The translations under genes and the position numbers were made by a program. A model generated the notes under the pieces. It was not told where the DNA came from. It saw only the letters and a program-made list of their open reading frames with translations, and searched no databases. DNA of 64,000 bases from a virus. The stretch lies in IMG/VR virus record IMGVR_UViG_3300027969_000042, positions 1-64,000 of that record; one strand, written 5' to 3'. Shown piece by piece: positions 17,506-37,420 of the stretch (positions are counted from its first letter, which is position 1; every line of letters begins with the position of its first letter).

Positions 17506-17707
17506 GTGCTATTATTAGTTCTGATATTTTTTCTTCTATAACCAAATATTCATAGTTTAAGACAATATCAGAAACATCTTCTGAAAATTCATCTTCAATT
17601 ATTAAACAATCTGTGTTCTCGATAAAAGAAATCAATTTCTTTAATCCTTGGCTCTGATAAACCGTTAAAATCTTTTCCTTACTTAAATAGCGCTTGTTAA
17701 ATCCCAT
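17492..17707 (-). CDS. Hypothetical protein
   Basis: 71-aa ORF overlapping the dnaJ start. Confidence 0.65.
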   Translation of the reverse strand: MGFNKRYLSKEKILTVYQSQGLKKLISFIENTDCLIIEDEFSEDVSDIVLNYEYLVIEEKISELIIAHELK

Positions 17708-17847
17708 ATTTTTATTAATTTATTTATTTTTCTTACTCTTAAAAACTTTCTATATTCTACCCAATTCATTCCTGTAGGAACAGGTTGTCCTTGTACACCT
17801 GTTACTCCAATTGGTCCTTGCACACCAAATGTTATATTATTATTCAT
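17683..17847 (-). CDS. Small ORF (54 aa) with collagen-like GxQG triplets and RVRKINKLI tag; not in the track
   Basis: Manual translation MNNNITFGVQGPIGVTGVQGQPVPTGMNWVEYRKFLRVRKINKLIKIWDLTSAI. Confidence 0.55.
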   Translation of the reverse strand: MNNNITFGVQGPIGVTGVQGQPVPTGMNWVEYRKFLRVRKINKLIKIWDLTSAI

Positions 17848-20422: not shown

Positions 20423-20755
20423 CTAAAAGTTGGGTTTATCTAAGTAGTATGTATTGTGTTCAGTAATAAACTCAAAGTTATCGTGTAATGTCTGACAATA
20501 TCCATTAAATGAGTGAACATCTTCTTGTGTTAGTTTAAACCATTCACCTCTAACTCTTTTACTTCTAAAAATTCTATGAAGACTTGATTCTATTTTAGTT
20601 CCCCATTTTGATGTAAATGAGTCAACTAAATAAAGATCTGCTGCATTACCAGTCTTAAACTCTTTCAGACGTTTTTCAATCTTTCTTTTAGTAAAACCTA
20701 TTTTATGTAGTTTTTCACCTTCTATATCCGCACAAATTAAATAAATGTTTGTCAT
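20423..20755 (-). CDS. GIY-YIG-related T5orf172/MUG113-like nuclease domain protein
   Basis: IYLI...HKIGFT...KRLKEFKTGN...ESSLHRIF...RGEWF. Confidence 0.8.
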   Translation of the reverse strand: MTNIYLICADIEGEKLHKIGFTKRKIEKRLKEFKTGNAADLYLVDSFTSKWGTKIESSLHRIFRSKRVRGEWFKLTQEDVHSFNGYCQTLHDNFEFITEHNTYYLDKPNF

Positions 20756-20766
20756 AGAAGTATATA

Positions 20767-21169
20767 TTACTTCTTCTTGACTCTCTTTTTTTCTTTTTTT
20801 ATGGATTTAACAACTGGTTTTTTATAGACTTCAACTAAAGTATCACCATAGTTGACTTTTTCATAGTAATATCTAATAGATACCAAATTATGTCTTCTAT
20901 CTATTTCTAATCTACCAAAAACTTTAGCACCTTTGATGTTTACGATATAAGGACCATTTTTTAATAACCTACCTTTTTAATATACTATCACAAACCTCTC
21001 TTCTTATAAGAGGTCTGGATTTATAATTAGAATAAACAACCATTGTATCTGAACTTCTAACACTACTTATTGATTCCATTCCATCATATCCATAGGTATA
21101 GTATTGTACCTTTTGTTGTGAATAAACAAAAGTGGTTAGAAATAGAAATATGATTTTTATTATTTTCAT
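20767..21169 (-). pseudogene. Signal-peptide-bearing protein split by a +1 frameshift in an A5 run (20974-20978)
   Basis: 66-aa ORF MKIIKIIFLFLTTFVYSQ... stops at AAA AGG TAG; removing one A continues it through 70 more codons (GRLLKNGPY...KKEKKRVKKK*). Confidence 0.6.
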
Positions 21170-21348
21170 TTAGAAGATTTCAATAGTGTAAAGTCATGTT
21201 CTCGAACATAAACTCCAGGACTAATATACATATTCTTTTCTGGTAGACCTAATATTCTTCTTAATTTTTTTAAACGATTATGCCTTCTAATTCTTCTTAC
21301 TAACCTATGATCAATTTCATTGGATATAAATCCTGGACTTCTACTCAT
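21166..21348 (-). CDS. 60-aa peptide with two tail-sheath N-terminal-like motifs flanking an RLKKLRRIL tag
   Basis: Likely start ATG 21348: MSRSPGFISNEID...RLKKLRRILG...MYISPGVYVREHDFT. Confidence 0.6.
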   Translation of the reverse strand: MSRSPGFISNEIDHRLVRRIRRHNRLKKLRRILGLPEKNMYISPGVYVREHDFTLLKSSK

Positions 21349-21667
21349 TGACTTTAAATATATTATTGATTTTTCTTTTTCTTGTTGTGTGTTTTGTATC
21401 ACCATATTGATAATCAGCATAAAATAATTGACCACTAGGGGCGGGTAATGGTTTAACGGATACTAAATCAAGGCCGATAGTTTGTGCAGCAACTTTCATT
21501 GCGATTGGAAACATACTTGGAAAACTTGAAGTACTTGTTGTAGTTTGTGATTGGAATCCAGCATATTGAGACATCCAGGTGGATTTAGATCCAGTTAGAC
21601 CCATATTACCAATAAGATTATCCCATTTATATTGGGTATCTTTTCTGGTATTTTTTAAATTTTTCAT
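21341..21667 (-). CDS. Truncated major-capsid-protein (T4 gp23-like) fragment with C-terminal RKRKINNIF tag
   Basis: FPIAMKVAAQTIGLDLVSVKPLPAPSGQLFYADYQYG resembles the gp23-family segment (..IAYDICGVQPMTGPTGLIFAMRSRY); only 108 aa. Confidence 0.65.
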   Translation of the reverse strand: MKNLKNTRKDTQYKWDNLIGNMGLTGSKSTWMSQYAGFQSQTTTSTSSFPSMFPIAMKVAAQTIGLDLVSVKPLPAPSGQLFYADYQYGDTKHTTRKRKINNIFKVNE

Positions 21668-21703
21668 AATAAAAATTTGTTTATTATAGAAAAATTTATC
21701 ATG

Positions 21704-21991
21704 TTAGTTTAGAGTTTTATACTCTTGTTTAATTTCAGTTTCTAGTTCAGACTCTTGTTGTTCGTCTAATTGTTTATTAAACTCTTTTTTATACCAAGAA
21801 ATTAGTTGATGAATGATAATATCTTCTGCTTCACCATTACTGACTGCATTATAATCACCTTCTTCAACCCATTCTTTTACTTCATCAGCAAGCATTTCAG
21901 AAACGGTTTCTTCTGTGAATTGTTCTTTAATCTTTACAACTGCATGATGTTTATCAAAAGTGTTCTCATTATATTTTCTTAAATATCTCAT
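21704..21991 (-). CDS. Hypothetical acidic protein, CTS-like N-terminus (MRYLRKYNE)
   Basis: 95-aa ORF. Confidence 0.7.
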   Translation of the reverse strand: MRYLRKYNENTFDKHHAVVKIKEQFTEETVSEMLADEVKEWVEEGDYNAVSNGEAEDIIIHQLISWYKKEFNKQLDEQQESELETEIKQEYKTLN

Positions 21992-22404
21992 ATCTCATTA
22001 TTATATTTTACATAAATACTCATTCCTGAAGCTTCTTTTATAGGATGTGATTTTAATTCCTCTATTGTAAATGGAGTAGTTTCACTATTATTGTCCCATA
22101 GTAATACAACTTGCTCATCATCTAAATCCGTATTCTCTGGAACTAACTTATATTTCTTATTTATAATTTCTACAAATGGAATTAAATGATCTTTAAGTTT
22201 ATCCCATTTTATATTTTTATCATCTACTGAGTAAATCTCTATTACTATACATTCATCTATGAATTGATATTCATACACGCCAACTTCAATATTATTATCA
22301 TCTAGTAAGTAAGCCAGATACATCTCACTAACTTCCTTTAGTTCATTTATAAAGTCTTCAATATGAAAATTTTCAAATAATTTATAAAACTTTAAATATT
22401 TCAC
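21988..22404 (-). CDS. Hypothetical protein, CTS-like N-terminus (GTG start)
   Basis: 138 aa; shares ELxExxExxLAYLxD...IKWDxxKDHxIPF with 51971..52435. Confidence 0.7.
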   Translation of the reverse strand: MKYLKFYKLFENFHIEDFINELKEVSEMYLAYLLDDNNIEVGVYEYQFIDECIVIEIYSVDDKNIKWDKLKDHLIPFVEIINKKYKLVPENTDLDDEQVVLLWDNNSETTPFTIEELKSHPIKEASGMSIYVKYNNEI

Positions 22405-23357
22405 TACTTCAATTTAATATGTACATATAACCAGAATGAGTGTGGTTTAACACTAATCAGAACTTTTTGACCCCATTTTTTAGTCATAACCCAAGTAGTG
22501 AAATTGTTTTTAATATTCAATAATTCACCTTCATCTAATTTACCATTATCCCACTTACCAATACCATAGTATCCAAATGAAATTACTTTATCAGAAATTG
22601 TTGGCTTTGATTCTTTTTCAAAATATCCAGGTTTAAAATCTTTCATATCAGTTTTAATCTTACCAAGAAGTAACATATCGGTATGTGATATATTTACAAT
22701 TTCTTTTTTCAAAGAAGCTGCTGATTTAGATTCAATAGTTACTAACCATCTTAAAACTGAAGGAGTTAGTTTGAATTGTCCAATTGGATTTAATTTATCA
22801 TAAGTAACACCATATTCAAATGTTCCATCACATTTAATACCAAAGTAAAGACCACATTCATTTTTACCATAATCAATCATATCTAAATATCTTGTCAATG
22901 ATTTGAATCTACTAAATACAGATTTAACATCTTCTGATGATAGGTCTGGATAATAATAAAATAATAAGAAATGAGAAGGACATTTTTCAACATTTGAGCC
23001 TTTCTCTTTTTGACCTAGTGCGGTCAATGATTTTAAAAATGAATTAAAGATTGATTTACCAGCAATTGTAATTTCAGCAGACTCATTGATTTCGGTTGAA
23101 ACCAAAATCTCAGGTTCTTTTTCTTCGATACCATTTTGAAGATAAGTATCAATTTGTGATTTAATATCATCTTGTTCAGATTGTTCTAATGTATTTATAG
23201 CATTAGACAGTCTTATATTAGAAGGTATATCTCCTAAAAATCGATTTACTATGTTTTTAACATATTCATCATCATACAAAGACTCAACCCACTCTCCAAG
23301 TGAATTGAAGTCTTGTAATTCAGATTCTTTAATAAACTCTAAATACTTCTTTATCAT
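22404..23357 (-). CDS. Hypothetical protein, candidate internal head protein (MIKKYLEFIKES)
   Basis: 317 aa; preceded by TAATATATAC. Confidence 0.75.
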   Translation of the reverse strand: MIKKYLEFIKESELQDFNSLGEWVESLYDDEYVKNIVNRFLGDIPSNIRLSNAINTLEQSEQDDIKSQIDTYLQNGIEEKEPEILVSTEINESAEITIAGKSIFNSFLKSLTALGQKEKGSNVEKCPSHFLLFYYYPDLSSEDVKSVFSRFKSLTRYLDMIDYGKNECGLYFGIKCDGTFEYGVTYDKLNPIGQFKLTPSVLRWLVTIESKSAASLKKEIVNISHTDMLLLGKIKTDMKDFKPGYFEKESKPTISDKVISFGYYGIGKWDNGKLDEGELLNIKNNFTTWVMTKKWGQKVLISVKPHSFWLYVHIKLK

Positions 23358-31795: not shown

Positions 31796-34700
31796 TTATA
31801 ATTCTATTATTGACATACTAATATCCCTTACTCTTGAAGTCCCACCTACAATTGACGATAAACTTATATCTACCCAAAGTGCCGTATTTAGCGATAGACC
31901 ACTTACAATTGCATTTAGTGAGAATGGCACTCTAGGTACTGATGTACCACCACCGGATGTATTTATATACATTTTAACTAGTCCACCTTGTGCACTACCA
32001 GTTAGTATGGCACCATTTATTGGTGGTGTTCCTGTTCCTGTTCTTATTTGTACTTCGGAACCGTTAGTATCACCAACACTATTATCTATATCACCTGATA
32101 TAATTATCAGTATTTTTCCAGAAAAAGTTGGTGTTATCGATGCAGATAATCCCATCATTACACCAGTTATCGAAGTAGTAGTATTTGGATCACTAGGTGT
32201 TTTCTGAGTAGTTGTATTCACAACAGAACCAGTTGCTCCAGTTGCTCCGGATGTTCCTGATGAACCACTTGTACCTGATGAACCAGATGAACCACTTGTT
32301 CCTGAAGAACCACTTGGACCTGTAGCACCAATTATACCACTTGTACCTGATGAACCGGATGTTCCAGAAGAACCACTTGGACCTGTAGCACCAATTATAC
32401 CACTTGTACCTGATGAACCACTTGTACCTGATGAACCGGATGTTCCAGAAGAACCACTTGGACCTGTAGCACCAATTATACCACTTGTACCTGATGAACC
32501 ACTTGTACCGGATGTACCTCTTGTACCCGAAGAACCAGATGAACCACTTGTTCCAGATGAACCAGAACTACCGGATGAACCACTTGTTCCAGATGAACCA
32601 CTTGTACCTGATGAACCACTTGTACCGGATGAACCACTTGTGCCGGATGAACCATTACTACCAGTCGGACCAGTATTTATAGGTGCAGTTTGCCAAGTTG
32701 CGGCAGTTGCAGAAACGGCCATTAAAACCTGTCCTATACTAGGTGCAGTTGCACCTGCTATATAAACTGGAGTTGTATTTGTTTTTAAACTATCAGATTC
32801 AACATAATTTGTCAAACCGGTTATTGTCTTATTTGTTAAAGATTGTGTCAAACTTGTTATATTATCTAATATAACTTTATCAGTGCTTAACATAAATCCA
32901 TTATCAATACTTGTTACAACAGAGTGTAAAGTACCACCTGGTTGATTACCGTGTGCGTGAATATGATCTTGTCTTGCAAAAGCATTTACTCCACCAATTT
33001 GACTAAAAGTTCCAATTGTAGAAGGTGTTCCCGTTGGTAAAGGATCTACTCCACCAGGAAGATGTCTTGAAGCATGAGATGTAATACTAACATTGTTTAT
33101 TAAGTTTACACCAGTAATAGAGTTGCTACCCATTTGTAAATTACTAGTTAGTGCTCTTGTACCATTTGATAATAAGTATTGTGGATGGTCATCATTAGAT
33201 AATCCTATTAAAGAAGAGTGTTCTGAGGATGCATTAATACCAGCTGCTCTAAAACCAACTAATGGTCTTTGATCTCTAATCTCTGCTATACTTGCAGTTC
33301 CTTGTTGAACTATAATACCAGCAATTAAAGCGACTGCATCGGTAAAATAATCTGGAGGTGTTGCCAAATTAGCAACTTGTGCTGCTAATATATCAGTATG
33401 TTGAGTATTATCATAAACCATAAAATATTTCTCTTCTATACCATCTCCAATTACATATAATGAGTGTTTTGCATAGTATGATGCACTTAATGAAATTAAA
33501 GAGTTAGTACCAGCATAATAGTTATTATCAACTGAATTAGTTGATGAGATTATCCAATCACCTAAACCATCAGGATAATAACTACTAAATGTAATTCCTA
33601 TTCCACCAGACGGATTAAATTCATTGGCACCAAAGTAGTATGTTCCTTGTGAAACATTTAATTGTAATGATTGTGATGCATTTTGCGTTACAATAGACCC
33701 AGAAGAATAAATCGGACCCAATCCTTTTCTCAATAATTTAACTGCTCTATTTGACCAGTGTTCCGCAGGAAGTGGTGTTTTTTCAATAAACTCAAATCCC
33801 ACCGAATTTGTTCTTACTCTACCTAATAATATATTTGCAGAAGTATCTGGAATAGTAGTATCAGAGGTTAAAACCTTTGATTCATTAAAATAAATATATC
33901 TAGTTGAATGTGGTGTAATACCTATTGATGAATTATCCCAATCATGTCTGTTTAAAATACCGACCGTACCAATAAATCCAGAGTTTATATGAAAATATCC
34001 AAATCCAGCAGCAACACTAAGTGTTAAACCACTTCCATTAGATAATTCACCGCCTTCAATAACACCCATTGTAGATGCTCTTGATATAAGTGTAGATACA
34101 TCAGTTGTTACTGTTGGTGTATATGTAATATTTAATCCACCAGAAATTGTAAAATCTCCAATTACTGAATCAGAATATGCTATACTTACACCATCTGCCA
34201 AAGTAACTACTTTTGATTTTTCAAATGAACCATTTAAGTTTCCTATTGTATCAGGATGATTTATTTGTATATGATGATTTGTAGTTTGACAAGATATACC
34301 AACACCAATTATATTAGAAGCAGTATCTAAACCAGTTGTTGGATTAGTAATACCATAGTCCCATGATGTATAATTTACTGCATTTAATCTAGATTTTGCA
34401 CCATTTTCAATTATTAAAAATGTTGATCCTAATTGAATAGTCCCTGCATTTGCTTGCACCGAGTTCATTACAATCTCACAATTTATACCAGATGCTTTTG
34501 CAAACCAAGTTGGTTTAACAGTTGCCATACCTTGTGAATAACAATGTAAAAGTAAGATTCTTGAAGGTACTGAGTTATTATTGTTATAAGCAGTAAATCC
34601 TTTATCAAATTCAAATGAATCTCCGTATCTTGAATCTACTACTTGTACAGTTGTTCTACTAGTGTCTGCATAACAAATAACATGTGAATCATTAGTACCA

Positions 34701-37420
34701 AATATAACATCTTTTATAATAAATGCACTTTGATCTGTACCAGTAGGTGATGTATGATAAAATGCAGCATAACCTAAACCGGCACCAGTTACTGTAATAC
34801 CGGATACTGCACAATCATCTTTTCCTAAGAATATATGTTGTGTATTTGTTTTAGGTAAAACTCTTGTGGTTCTACTTCCTTTTATATCAACATAAGATCT
34901 CATTTGAATAGTATCTTCATAATAATCACCAGGACCAACATTTATTGTATATCCATTTGTTATTGTAGCATCATTTACAGATTCAACTGCTGCTTTAATA
35001 GAAGTAAAATCTCCACCTTTTTTAGATACTGTTATTAAGTTTATATCTCTATTTACAACATAAAATGGTGCCAATTTAGGGATATTTATTTTTTCATATT
35101 TAATTGCACCAAAAATTTCTCCTTGCGTATCAGGATGTTCAATAAGTAAGTCATATGAAACACTTTCTAATAATTTAATACCATTTGATTTGAATGTTGA
35201 GAATGTACCAACATTACCAACTTTTACTGCATTATACCAATTGGTAAAATATGAACCAACTACATCTAGTGATGCACCATCTTCTAAATAAGCACCAATA
35301 CCATATCCTTCACCTTTATTACCAGATGTCAGTATATCAACTGATGCACCAACTCCTGATATAAAAGTACCAATTGAGTTTGTACCACCTATTGGTAAAT
35401 TATAATAATTTTCTAAATTCACATAAGAGATAAATTCATTTTCTGAAATAACTTTAACACCATAAGAATACACTCCATTAAAATCGATATATTCTCCATA
35501 AAATTCACTATCAACAGAGTTTGCAGTTACTTCAATACCTATATCACAACTTTCAAATGAAATTTTATGAACTTGTGAGTAGTTACCATTATTATAGACT
35601 CTAATGGCAGGAACTCCAATTGAACTATTTTGTATTGTTAAAAATGAAATTTCATTATTTGTACCTAAATCAAAAACTACATTATCTGCAATTGGTTCTA
35701 TAACTACTGAATCAATAGATGAACCAACAATAGATACATATGGACTATTAGTTAAATCTATAGTAGGTTCTAAATAAATACCTGGATTTACTTTAATAAT
35801 ATATCTGTTATTCTCATCCATATCATTAATAGATGCAACTGCAGCTGCTAATGATTGATGATCTCCATCTCTTTTTGCAACAGTTATAATTTTTAAGTCA
35901 TAGTTATAAATATAAAATGGTGCACCGTCTAAATAAAATTTAGTATGGTCAACAACTCCAAAACAAAATCCTGTTGTTAAAGGATGCTCAATATAAAAAT
36001 CATATATACCAGATTCTGATATAGATAAGCTATTTAATCTTAAATCTGGTGCATTTAAACCTTCATTTTTTGAATATATTGTTTTTTCAAATCCTCTTAA
36101 TGTTGATGCTAGTGCAATTACTTGAGCACCATCATAAACAATTATACCAGTTGTACCAGTTGCTGGTTTTACTCGTATTGTTGAGTTTGTCAATGTAAAT
36201 AATGTATTTACACCATATACTGTAATAAATGTTACAAGTGGTGATACTAAGTCATAGTAATTACAATCTACTAATAAAATTTGTGTAATAACCTCATTAG
36301 TATTATTTACTAAAAATCCATATTTATTTGTACCTGTAATTGTACATCTATTTACATGAACCAATGACTTTTCTACTGCACCATAACAATGTACCTGTGT
36401 TTCATTATTTTTAAAATTACAATCTCTAATAACAAATTCAACTCCACCAGTACCTTCATGATAAACTGCTAATCCACCAATCCCATTGGCACCACTTAAA
36501 GTTACTTTATTGATTGATGACTCATCACAACCTATAAAAATAGTACTTGTGCTATCAATTGGTTTAACAATTACTCCACCGGTAGTATCACCGATAACAG
36601 AAATATGTGATTTCATTGTTATTGTGTCTTCTTCATATACACCAGGTCCAACTTTAATAATAAATGGATTAGATGCAGATGCGGTTGTAATTGAATCAAC
36701 TGCTTCTTTAATACTTGAAAATTGATTAGATCCAGTTGTTCCTTTTTTAACAGTAATTATATTGGTATCATAGATTTGTAAATCTAATTGATCGATTGCT
36801 AATTGCACATTAGTTTGTGTTAGACTACCAATTGGTTCATAAGTTACTAATGATGCAGTAAATGATGTTGGTGTTAGTCCGATCTCTCCTTGTGGTCCTG
36901 TCACTCCTTGAGGTCCAGGTATAGTTGAATCCGCTCCTGTTGCACCGATTGGTCCTATTTCTCCTTGAGGTCCTGTTGCACCGATTGGTCCTTGAGGTCC
37001 AGGTATATTTGAATCCGCTCCTGTTGCACCGATTGGTCCGATCTCTCCTTGTGGTCCAGTTGCACCGATTGACCCTACTTCTCCTTGAGGTCCAGTTGCA
37101 CCAGTCGTTGCTTGTTCAAATACATGTGTTACGTAGTTTTGAATATCTTTATCTATTAGAATAGGTACGTTACTAGTTAGTGTATCTATCTGTTGTTGTA
37201 ATCTTATTAAAGCAAGTTTTGCCTCATTTTGTGTTGAGAAATCTATTATTACAACTTTTAATGACTTTAAACTTATTCTTAATAGATTATTATCAACAGA
37301 TACATTTATTATAACAAATGGATTTATTGTATATTTAATATCATTAGTATCATCTAAAACTTTAATACTTCTGTCAGATGTAGTAATTGGTCTCAAAAAT
37401 TTATAGTAACTATAACTCAT
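31796..37420 (-). CDS. Long tail fibre/spike-like protein with three pectin-lyase-like modules, collagen and GSSGTS repeats
   Basis: 1874 aa; three 'ITV[KA]K..G.F.S...AV.SI...I.V.PG.Y.E' starts; [12 protein letters not shown] repeats; GSSGTS tract. Confidence 0.78.
32230..32670. repeat. Low-complexity 9/18-bp-unit repeat encoding (GSSGTS)n with GIIGATGPS spacers
   Basis: Repeated GATGAACCACTTGTACC units. Confidence 0.9.
36880..37105. repeat. Collagen-like Gly-X-Y repeat region
   Basis: Repeated TTGCACCGATTGGTCC and duplicated GADS[NT]IPGPQG blocks. Confidence 0.85.

Follow-up and report, generated by a model that had tools for sequence, protein, structure and literature searches.

A giant uncultured phage of the Mahaphage clade of megaphages (predicted Bacteroidota hosts) maintains a small, well-conserved gene that copies only the first quarter of the phage's own major capsid protein (MCP), including that protein's least changeable stretch, and joins it to a short tag carried by roughly one in ten of the phage's small proteins. 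The product most likely acts as a molecular mimic, i.e., a tagged bait resembling unassembled capsid protein, although this reading is tentative and both the binding and its target are inferred. The window analyzed comprises positions 1 to 64,000 of IMG/VR record IMGVR_UViG_3300027969_000042, and the gene lies at 21341..21667 on the minus strand (ATG start, 108 aa, stop codon included).

The mini-gene is intact and under selection

An earlier note, made from the sequence alone, described this ORF as a stand-alone MCP fragment fused to a tag, residing among accessory genes rather than at a broken MCP locus. That observation was confirmed, since the ORF, its MCP-like segments and its C-terminal RKRKINNIF were all found as described. 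To determine whether the resemblance to capsid protein exceeds chance, we performed profile searches, and these matched Pfam Gp23 (PF07068; E = 5.2e-5, aa 50-94 on profile positions 6-50 of 376) and PHROG 138, "major head protein" (E = 3.8e-6). The Pfam score of 23.3 bits lies about 1 bit below the gathering cut-off of 24.4, and the match does not cover the HK97-fold body, whereas the phage's own MCP scores 97 bits over positions 6-353. BLASTP against that MCP (575 aa; 158930..160657 of the contig, designated G000) gave E = 4e-20, with the alignment extending from Met1 to residue 133. In addition, a profile of the small family aligned to T4 gp23 residues 4-134 (PDB 6uzc; E = 9e-4), including ...DICGVQPMNSPTGQVF....

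Since the full-length MCP gene lies 138 kb away, the ORF is not part of a disrupted MCP locus. We found 83 homologous clusters of 59-189 aa, of which about 58 are 97-113 aa long, 66-97% identical, and of conserved synteny. The 80 best loci of an IMG/VR scan were almost all full-length MCPs rather than mini-genes. The earlier note had named the absence of a profile match, or neutral decay with variable stops, as grounds for abandoning its view, and neither was observed. Ten codon-aligned relatives are all open at the same length, without stops or frameshifts, and median dN/dS is 0.31, with 0.14 in the core and 0.08 in the tag (pS ~0.3).

A neutral remnant, i.e., a 5' piece of an MCP gene left by an old rearrangement and open only by chance, might be suggested by the start at the ancestral Met1 and by a nearby T5orf172/MUG113 nuclease-like gene. 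However, this possibility is very improbable, as it is contradicted by the retention of length and frame in the close clusters, the dN/dS values, the conserved upstream element, the conserved coupling to the next ORF, and an architecture that is kept in LR756502, a complete 642-kb relative, at only ~40% identity. We likewise rejected a recent duplicate or gene-conversion partner of the resident MCP. The protein is only 32% identical to the phage's own MCP, and its F-P-S and P-x-G-x-L-x-Y-x-D-Y-x-Y-G features resemble other MCP lineages. Moreover, MCP N-termini are ~90% identical between this phage and LR756502, while the mini-genes are ~40% identical and differ by a 50-aa insert, indicating that the mini-gene evolves much faster than the MCP.

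Architecture of the protein

Residues 8-42 (21542..21646, minus strand) form two predicted helices equivalent to the start of the MCP propeptide (K14-W15 ... W31-x-x-x-Y35) and align to MCP aa 8-40. AF2 placed helices at 8-20 and 27-42, as compared to 8-21 and 28-48 in the MCP model, and dN/dS for this part is 0.32. Residues 43-51 (21515..21541, minus strand) are a Ser/Thr-rich linker (dN/dS 0.94; pLDDT below 50 at aa 43-47) that replaces about 41 MCP residues, including the conserved H-x-I-N-E/N-A-Y stretch, which we take to be the protease maturation site. In the MCP, N42-E43-N44-A45-Y46 of this stretch are nearly invariant.

Residues 52-89 (21401..21514, minus strand) make up a helix followed by two extended segments, the invariant core of the whole family, and correspond to T4 gp23 at about aa 90-134. 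The Gol region of T4 gp23 occupies about aa 93-122, and this block is its equivalent by homology. The MCP counterpart, aa 85-131, is near-invariant across 38 MCPs that are only 52-82% identical overall, and every near-invariant residue of the small family is also an MCP residue. Thus, the mini-gene copies the most constrained block of the MCP. However, positions 75, 78, 80, 82, and 84 vary, so that one face of the last strand is free to change although both faces are fixed in the MCP. Since these sites were chosen after they had been seen, and their dN/dS of 1.13 is compatible with relaxed constraint, the excess variability should be read with caution.

Residues 96-108 (21344..21382, minus strand) comprise the tag RKRKINNIF plus a KVNE tail, which is invariant or nearly so in 58 close homologues (dN/dS 0.08 with pS 0.29) and lies within an AF2 helix at 91-106. 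For the whole protein, AF2 with 94 sequences returned a pLDDT of 60 and a pTM of 0.20, with four helices and an extended segment but no domain. The model therefore shows no autonomous fold able to form capsomers, as would be expected of a bait.

A shared tag and the promoter-like elements

The motif R-x-x-[KR]-[IL]-x-x-[IL]-[LIF] is about 13-fold enriched in this contig (14 occurrences against 1.1 expected) and was found 97 times against 6.2 in LR756502. Within 12 residues of the C-terminus, 11 hits were observed against 0.08 expected in this contig and 81 against 0.47 in LR756502. RKRKINNIF, which ends 4 residues before the stop, belongs to this class. A DNA-level repeat does not explain the tag, given its low dN/dS at a pS of 0.29 and the spacing of its conserved positions (i, i+3, i+4, i+7, i+8). 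The tag is C-terminal in the close family but lies inside a loop in the distant homologues L092, L094, and L095 and in that of LR756502. Of 197 small homologues, 121 carry it, against 0.5 after shuffling and 0 of 13 full MCPs, indicating that tag and Gol block are an obligate pair with the tag in variable positions. Two leads on its function remain, namely a sliding-clamp tail, since the spacing h-x-x-I-F is shared with this phage's PolB tail ...RLSVVMDIFGGF, or a handle for a Clp-type unfoldase.

An ATATATA[G/C] motif, which we consider late-type, precedes the MCP, portal, protease, terminase, and sheath genes. In LR756502, this motif precedes 3 of 74 tagged small genes as compared to 153 of 641 untagged ones (p = 1.9e-5), and this contig shows the same direction. 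The mini-gene has no such motif within 70 nt upstream. Instead, a conserved promoter-like element, TTCTATAAT (21683..21691, minus strand), is located 15 nt upstream of its ATG and is present at the same distance in all 10 relatives examined, including LR756502, even where it overlaps the upstream gene's coding sequence. Its function as a promoter is inferred; no -35 match was found, Bacteroidota promoters differ, and a host-type early promoter is kept only as a lead. The timing of expression is also inferred from motifs alone. Indeed, an upstream gene (22404..23357) carries the late-type motif and no terminator is predicted before the mini-gene, so late co-transcription is possible.

Sister genes copy other virion segments

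A second gene of the contig (69875..70108 of G000, 77 aa) equals MCP aa 507-555, a C-terminal hairpin, with the tag at the hairpin turn, and is itself a family of more than 60 conserved clusters. In LR756502, we found three tagged MCP pieces and a portal piece. Immediately downstream of the mini-gene, a translationally coupled peptide of 59/60 aa (21166..21345, minus strand) has its ATG inside ...AATGAGTAG, an 8-nt overlap, and carries two sheath-N-terminus-like motifs flanking an RLKKLRRIL tag. This ORF is conserved in 11 of 12 related loci and in LR756502. In the six-frame translation of LR756502, the motif PG[VIL][FYN][VITLF].E.D occurs only at the sheath N-terminus and in this peptide. However, the peptide gave no Pfam or PHROG hit, no sheath hit in the PDB, and no tblastn hit in phage records, and the resemblance therefore rests on a motif only. 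Profile searches with PF04984 and PF17482 found no sheath gene on this contig, which is a fragment of a genome of probably 0.4-0.64 Mb; the sheath was found in LR756502.

Possible functions of the mini-gene

The earlier note had proposed that the protein could titrate a host capsid sensor, poison a competing phage's head assembly, or regulate its own, and this interpretation is only partly supported by our results. The analysis establishes homology to the MCP, conservation, selection, the reality and mobility of the tag, the lack of an autonomous fold in the model, the class-level depletion of the late-type motif, and the existence of sister genes. In contrast, binding by mimicry, the identity of any target (whether a capsid sensor, the MCP of a rival phage, or the phage's own MCP), the timing of expression, and the role of the tag are inferences. 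Copying of the most invariant MCP block, rapid evolution with one strand face free to vary, membership in a gene class depleted of the late-type motif, and the sister genes are consistent with a mimic or decoy but do not prove one.

In the view we prefer, though without strong confidence, the protein is not a capsid subunit but an unfolded, partner-dependent copy that acts by competitive mimicry. It would present the one MCP segment that the phage cannot mutate to whatever recognizes that segment in newly made, unassembled capsid protein and, through the tag, would couple that complex to a common reader of all tagged proteins. The preferred target would be a host factor that senses or binds nascent gp23-type MCP, although no such sensor is known for these phages. 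The precedent is T4, in which the 29-aa Gol peptide, or more stably the first ~100 aa (a quarter) of gp23, binds EF-Tu and triggers the Lit protease of E. coli e14 (PMC3014915). The gene would then be an anti-defence bait made outside, or ahead of, the late capsid program, working alongside sister baits that copy the MCP C-terminal hairpin and the sheath arms. However, in a Lit-type host a free Gol-like peptide would be expected to activate the protease rather than block it, and EF-Tu is too abundant to be titrated.

The main rival, which we consider less likely, is interference with or control of assembly. The mimic could bind MCP subunits, either the phage's own or those of co-infecting gp23-type phages or induced prophages, supplying in trans the N-arm helix and the P-domain/E-loop strands, and so cap or poison folding and lattice growth or hold the MCP back until the proper time; the coupled peptide would do the same for the sheath "handshake." In HK97-fold and sheath structures, the copied elements (N-arm helix, strand, and first E-loop strand; the C-terminal hairpin in the sister gene; sheath N-arms) are strands that pair with other parts of the same or the neighboring subunit. 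In addition, all MCP-invariant residues are retained, the N- and C-terminal mimics co-occur on the same genomes and copy segments that should lie in the same sheet, and the 8-nt coupling to the sheath-arm-like peptide is conserved. On the other hand, the core is nearly identical to the phage's own MCP (17 of 20 residues), so a poison would not spare the phage itself. Furthermore, one strand face is unconstrained although the MCP partner surfaces are invariant, the gene belongs to a class depleted of the late-type motif, and this reading gives no role to a tag shared with roughly 80 unrelated small proteins.

It is also conceivable, but unlikely, that the protein is targeted to the prohead, where its propeptide-like helices would bind the scaffolding core as the MCP propeptide does, to be built in and delivered with the DNA, the tag serving as a second address or a DNA-binding tail. 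The N-terminal 40 aa keep the K-W ... W-x-x-x-Y signature of the propeptide, and distant family members keep an H-x-x-N-E site like that at the conserved MCP I-N-E/N-A-Y position, which would fit a life inside the prohead. Neighboring genes carry CTS-like N-termini, a class enriched for the late-type motif, and late read-through is possible. However, the close family has lost the N-E site and the whole cleavage stretch, while other members (L076, L082, L094, and L095) lack the propeptide helices altogether yet keep the Gol block plus tag. C-tagged and CTS-like N-tagged sets barely overlap (3 proteins) and have opposite promoter-motif biases.

Similarly unlikely is a modulator of translation or of MCP folding capacity, in which the Gol-equivalent block would bind host EF-Tu or a chaperonin without blunting immunity. 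In T4, Gol binds EF-Tu domains II/III, prefers EF-Tu:GDP, and inhibits its GTPase, and this was proposed to hold for all gp23-type MCPs (PMC3014915). The mini-gene spans the same region, but EF-Tu binding by this block in Bacteroidota is hypothetical. Moreover, other tagged mini-genes copy MCP regions that are not Gol (aa 421-451 and 507-555), as well as sheath-like and portal pieces, and the common denominator is therefore virion-protein mimicry rather than EF-Tu.

Bacterial immune systems often fire on conserved virion proteins, e.g., capsid (CapRel, Lit), portal and terminase (Avs), and tail tube (DSR2), and phages cannot easily mutate these blocks. A conserved gene that copies exactly the least mutable capsid block, in unfolded form, and links it to a universal tag suggests a different way out, in which the phage could present the trigger itself as a bait or use capsid pieces to control assembly. 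Either outcome would be new biology for the largest known phages, and would offer a handle on what their genome-wide tags are for and why the Gol region binds EF-Tu. A literature search found no published description of capsid-fragment decoys or of megaphage C-terminal tags. As a more speculative and improbable extension, Mahaphage-type megaphages may run a "tagged bait" system of small, non-late proteins, each copying one unchangeable block of a virion protein (the MCP N-terminus with the Gol block, the MCP C-terminal hairpin, an MCP A-domain helix, the sheath arms, or a portal segment) and displaying the same docking helix. Such baits would capture host factors that recognize those blocks and hand them to one phage-encoded reader for sequestration or unfolding, in the manner of an adaptor-plus-degron system, a candidate reader being the ClpA/C-like double AAA+ ATPase at 440544..442667 of LR756502. 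The sliding clamp and the portal of LR756502 are further candidate readers of the tag. This would be a new principle of anti-immunity in phages.

Comparison with known systems

The closest known system is the Gol region of T4 gp23, which covers the homologous stretch, the most conserved part of gp23-type MCPs, and for which a free peptide or the first quarter of the protein suffices for partner binding (PMC3014915). Here, however, the stretch is a separate, selected gene with its own upstream element and a tag, about 41 propeptide residues are deleted, and the predicted host is a member of the Bacteroidota rather than E. coli. With the gp23-type MCP and its vertex paralogue gp24 (PF07068, HK97 fold), the protein shares clear common ancestry over the N-terminal 133 residues, but at 108 aa against 575 aa it lacks the whole P-domain spine, the A-domain, and the insertion domain, and cannot form capsomers.

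Like the capsid-targeting sequence (CTS) proteins of T4 (IPI-III, Alt) and the CTS-like N-tagged proteins of this phage, it joins a short portable peptide to a body, and its propeptide-like helices could bind a scaffold. However, its N-terminus (MKNLKNTRKD) does not fit the M-K-x-[LI]-K-x-[FY]...E pattern, it lacks an [LI]-x-E cleavage site, no late-type motif lies directly upstream, and it carries the C-tag instead; a CTS-type head protein was thus rejected, at least for the close family. The nearest published analogues of the tag are the clamp-binding tails of T4/RB69 gp43, gp33, and gp55, but the tag is also found in internal loops in this family and usually ends in I-L rather than in aromatic residues.

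Capsid-derived restriction factors of animals (Fv1, enJS56A1) are similar in concept only, being truncated or diverged capsid-protein genes kept because they interfere with capsid function by mimicry; those are host genes acting against incoming or assembling retroviruses, without homology to the mini-gene, which is encoded by the virus itself. Finally, the capsid-redirecting proteins of satellites (P4 Sid, SaPI CpmA/B, PLE TcaP) are also small accessory proteins, which act on another element's capsid assembly, but they are alternative scaffolds rather than MCP fragments and share neither the tag nor homology with the mini-gene.

A small gene related to the N-terminus of the major capsid protein

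The earlier note described a 108-aa ORF with segments resembling a gp23-type major capsid protein (MCP), and this observation held, since an ATG-started ORF of 108 aa containing those segments was found at window 21341..21667 on the minus strand. The ORF product matched the Pfam Gp23 profile (E 5.2e-5; aa 50-94 on profile positions 6-50), although its score of 23.3 bits was below the cut-off of 24.4, and it also matched PHROG 138, "major head protein" (E 3.8e-6). The 177,545-bp IMG/VR contig (29% G+C), of which the window is the first 64 kb, also carries a full gp23-type MCP of 575 aa at 158930..160657 (97 bits). BLASTP aligned the small ORF to residues 1-133 of this MCP, starting at Met1 (E 4e-20, 32% identity), with a single gap of about 41 residues, and a profile of the family aligned to T4 gp23 residues 4-134 (PDB 6uzc, E 9e-4). 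The protein therefore equals the two N-terminal propeptide helices plus the helix-strand-strand block around ...LPIAMKVAAQTIGLDLVSVKP...G-x-L-F-Y-x-D-Y-x-Y-G. The deleted part includes the nearly invariant H-S-I-N-E/N-A-Y stretch of the MCP which, by analogy with T4, we infer to be the maturation-protease site.

To determine whether the ORF is a gene or debris, we examined its homologues. The protein search returned 83 clusters of 59-189 aa, about 58 of which are 97-113 aa long and 66-97% identical. Twelve related loci with DNA showed the same neighborhood, i.e., a glycosyltransferase (about 1,275 aa), a 317-aa gene, a 94/95-aa gene, the mini-gene, a short overlapping ORF, variable ORFs, T5orf172, and an SbcC-like gene. 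Since some of these relatives sit on contigs of 433, 635, and 640 kb, the phage is probably a megaphage whose true genome is much larger than the 177.5-kb contig, and the 74% completeness assigned by CheckV is probably an over-estimate. Nei-Gojobori dN/dS over 10 sequences had a median of 0.31, with no stops or frameshifts. By region, dN/dS was 0.32 in the N-terminal helices, 0.94 in the linker, 0.14 in the core equivalent to the Gol region of T4 gp23, and 0.08 in the C-terminal tag, with pS about 0.3. Thus, neither of the outcomes that had been set as grounds for refutation (no profile match to gp23-family MCPs, or neutral decay with variable stops) was observed, the ORF is a gene as the earlier note had claimed, and a neutral remnant of an MCP gene is very unlikely. 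An exhaustive search of representative sequences gave 391 clusters at 50% identity with E below 1e-3, many of them short; however, the intermediate lengths are mostly MCP fragments at contig ends, while a few carry only the Gol-like block inside other proteins of 190-254 aa.

Comparison with the complete 642,428-bp megaphage LR756502, a member of the Mahaphage clade with a predicted Bacteroidetes host (Al-Shayeb 2020; PMC7162821), showed the same cassette, consisting of a 165-aa paralogue of the MCP N-terminus followed, with an ATGA overlap, by a 65-aa ORF that starts MRFVSPGVYTKEVD, and then T5orf172. LR756502 also encodes a TonB-dependent receptor (Plug domain plus beta-barrel) at 150950-153001 (in our locus numbering, L112:10950-13001, minus strand), which fits a Gram-negative, Bacteroidota-type host. 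The MCP N-terminus of LR756502 is about 90% identical to that of the present phage. In contrast, the two mini-genes are only about 40% identical, and the LR756502 copy has a 50-aa insert that neither MCP has. In addition, the F-P-S and P-x-G-x-L-x-Y-x-D-Y-x-Y-G features of the mini-gene resemble other MCP lineages more than the resident one. The mini-gene is therefore an old, fast-evolving paralogue, and not a recent copy or a gene-conversion partner of the resident MCP. Although MCP residues 85-131 are essentially invariant in 38 MCPs that are 52-82% identical overall, positions 75, 78, 80, 82, and 84 of the mini-gene vary, alternating with invariant P77, L81, Y83, and D85, so that one face of the last strand has lost its constraint.

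The tag and its distribution

The C-terminal RKRKINNIF fits the motif R-x-x-[KR]-[IL]-x-x-[IL]-[LIF]. Among the 190 proteins of this contig, the motif occurred 14 times against 1.1 expected from shuffled sequences, with 11 occurrences within 12 aa of the C-terminus against 0.08 expected. Among the 1,023 proteins of LR756502 (L105-L137), it occurred 97 times against 6.2 expected, with 81 within 12 aa of the C-terminus against 0.47 expected, and the consensus in that genome is R-[DN]-x-K-[IL]-[ND]-x-[IL]-L followed by 0-5 residues. The conserved positions (1, 4, 5, 8, 9) lie on one face of a helix, and AF2 predicts a helix there. The low dN/dS with normal pS argues for selection on the protein and not on a DNA repeat. 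The tag stays with this family but moves. It is C-terminal in the close family, inside the 50-aa insert (N-R-D-G-K-I-D-S-I-I) in LR756502 and family member L092, between the helix and the strand in members L094 and L095, and C-terminal again in member L056. Of 197 small homologues, 121 carry the strict motif, against 0.5 after shuffling, while none of 13 full-length MCPs does. The claim of the earlier note that the fragment is fused to a tag is therefore correct, and the fusion is a defining property of the family.

Two other proteins may bear on how the tag is read. The C-terminal part of PolB, at 132621-133925 of the contig (minus strand), ends in ...TKRLSVVMDIFGGF, a tail like the clamp-binding tails of T4/RB69 whose hydrophobic spacing resembles the tag. 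LR756502 encodes, at 440544-442667 (L127:544-2667), a ClpA/C-like double AAA+ ATPase (AAA_2 E 2e-70, ClpB_D2-small) with no Clp_N domain and a unique N-terminus, pieces of which are copied by two small ORFs; it is a candidate tag reader only.

Other small genes resembling virion proteins

The next ORF (window 21166..21345, minus strand; 59/60 aa) starts inside the last codons of the mini-gene, with an 8-nt overlap, and is translationally coupled to it. It is conserved in 11 of 12 related loci, and carries two copies of a Y-x-x-P-G-[VI]-x-x-x-E-x-D motif, which resemble a sheath N-terminus, around an R-L-K-K-L-R-R-[IL]-L tag (here RLKKLRRIL-G-L-P). In LR756502 it is present as the 65-aa form with one motif. 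In the six-frame translation of LR756502, this motif occurred only at the N-terminus of the 1,283-aa sheath and in the 65-aa peptide (0.025 expected). However, we built the motif from those two sequences, and no HMM, PDB, or tblastn search supported the resemblance.

Outside the window, a 77-aa ORF at 69875..70108 of the contig (minus strand; L003:1369-1602, minus strand) aligned to MCP residues 507-555 (E 6e-5; Pfam Gp23 positions 303-336), with the tag Y-F-R-K-S-K-I-R-R-L-L-G-M-P inserted exactly at the turn of the C-terminal beta-hairpin. This second capsid mini-gene is itself conserved in more than 60 clusters, on the same long contigs as the first, and the adjacent 43-aa ORF (70095-70226) also ends in a tag. 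In LR756502, five small ORFs hit the MCP. The first, copying aa 8-129, has the C-tag motif, here inside the insert. The other four (277261-277446, 501868-502047, 80294-80539, and 542908-543423) copy aa 513-546 and aa 421-451, each with a C-terminal tag, aa 44-88, with an N-terminus like a capsid-targeting sequence (CTS) and the late-type motif described below upstream, and aa 54-86, also with the late-type motif upstream. All three BLAST hits from tagged small proteins to large proteins were to the MCP. A 153-aa ORF (316849-317310) two genes downstream of the cassette copies residues 277-335 of the portal (portal PF07230, E 1e-57). A weaker case is the tagged 54-aa ORF at window 17683..17847 (minus strand), whose collagen-like G-P-I-G-V-T-G-V-Q-G stretch matched aa 141-159 of the 1,874-aa fibre-like protein (31796-37420) at only E 0.007.

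Upstream motifs and inferred expression class

The motif ATATATA[G/C] lies 15-35 nt upstream of 78 of 190 genes on this contig, e.g., those at 158930-160657, 22404-23357, and 20423-20755. In LR756502 it precedes the MCP, portal, head protease, large terminase, and sheath genes, but not the DNA polymerase, helicase, nuclease, or Clp-like ATPase genes; the RNR large-subunit gene is an exception. We therefore infer that it is probably a late-type promoter. Among proteins of 200 aa or fewer in LR756502, 3 of 74 C-tagged genes have the motif, against 153 of 641 others (p = 1.9e-5), whereas genes with CTS-like N-terminal tags are enriched for it (46 of 92, p = 1e-10), and this contig shows the same directions. 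The mini-gene lacks the motif and instead has a conserved TTCTATAAT 15 nt before the ATG in every relative, including LR756502. However, the 317-aa gene upstream carries the late-type motif and no terminator is predicted in between, so late read-through cannot be excluded. The three genes upstream of the mini-gene (window 21704-21991, 21988-22404, and 22404-23357, minus strand) start with CTS-like peptides (MRYLRKYNEN, MKYLKFYKLFENF, and MIKKYLEFIKESE), and the 317-aa gene is conserved as far as LR756502.

Predicted structure and possible mechanism

AF2 modelling with 94 sequences gave pLDDT 60 and pTM 0.20, with predicted helices at 8-20, 27-42, 53-64, and 91-106 and an extended segment at 65-90. 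The MCP model (pLDDT 67) has the corresponding elements, i.e., H8-21, H28-48, H88-108, and E119-128. On these predictions the mini-protein therefore has no fold of its own, and should acquire structure only on a partner.

What the data require is a selected, partner-dependent protein that keeps every MCP-invariant residue of this block, has one strand face free to vary, and retains the tag, whereas the binding by mimicry, the target, and the role of the tag are inferred. The simplest mechanism would be competitive mimicry of unassembled MCP, with the tag linking the complex to a common reader. The proposals of the earlier note, that the protein could titrate a host capsid sensor, poison the head assembly of a competing phage, or regulate that of its own, are partly supported, in that the data are consistent with a mimic or decoy role but do not prove it. 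We tentatively prefer a host factor as the target. The mini-gene evolves fast while the MCP is frozen, it belongs to a class depleted of the late-type motif, and its sister genes copy other invariant virion blocks, which are the kind of features that immune sensors use. Binding to the MCP itself, as an assembly poison or control, is conceivable but doubtful, and both a scaffold-bound head protein and a modulator of EF-Tu or a chaperone appear unlikely.

Searches of the available literature found no description of phage-encoded capsid-fragment genes or of the tag. The closest precedent for a host target is T4, in which this very region, as a free peptide or as the first quarter of gp23, binds EF-Tu and triggers the Lit abortive-infection protease (PMC3014915). 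The mini-protein is not a member of the MCP family in any functional sense, and it is not a T4-type CTS protein.
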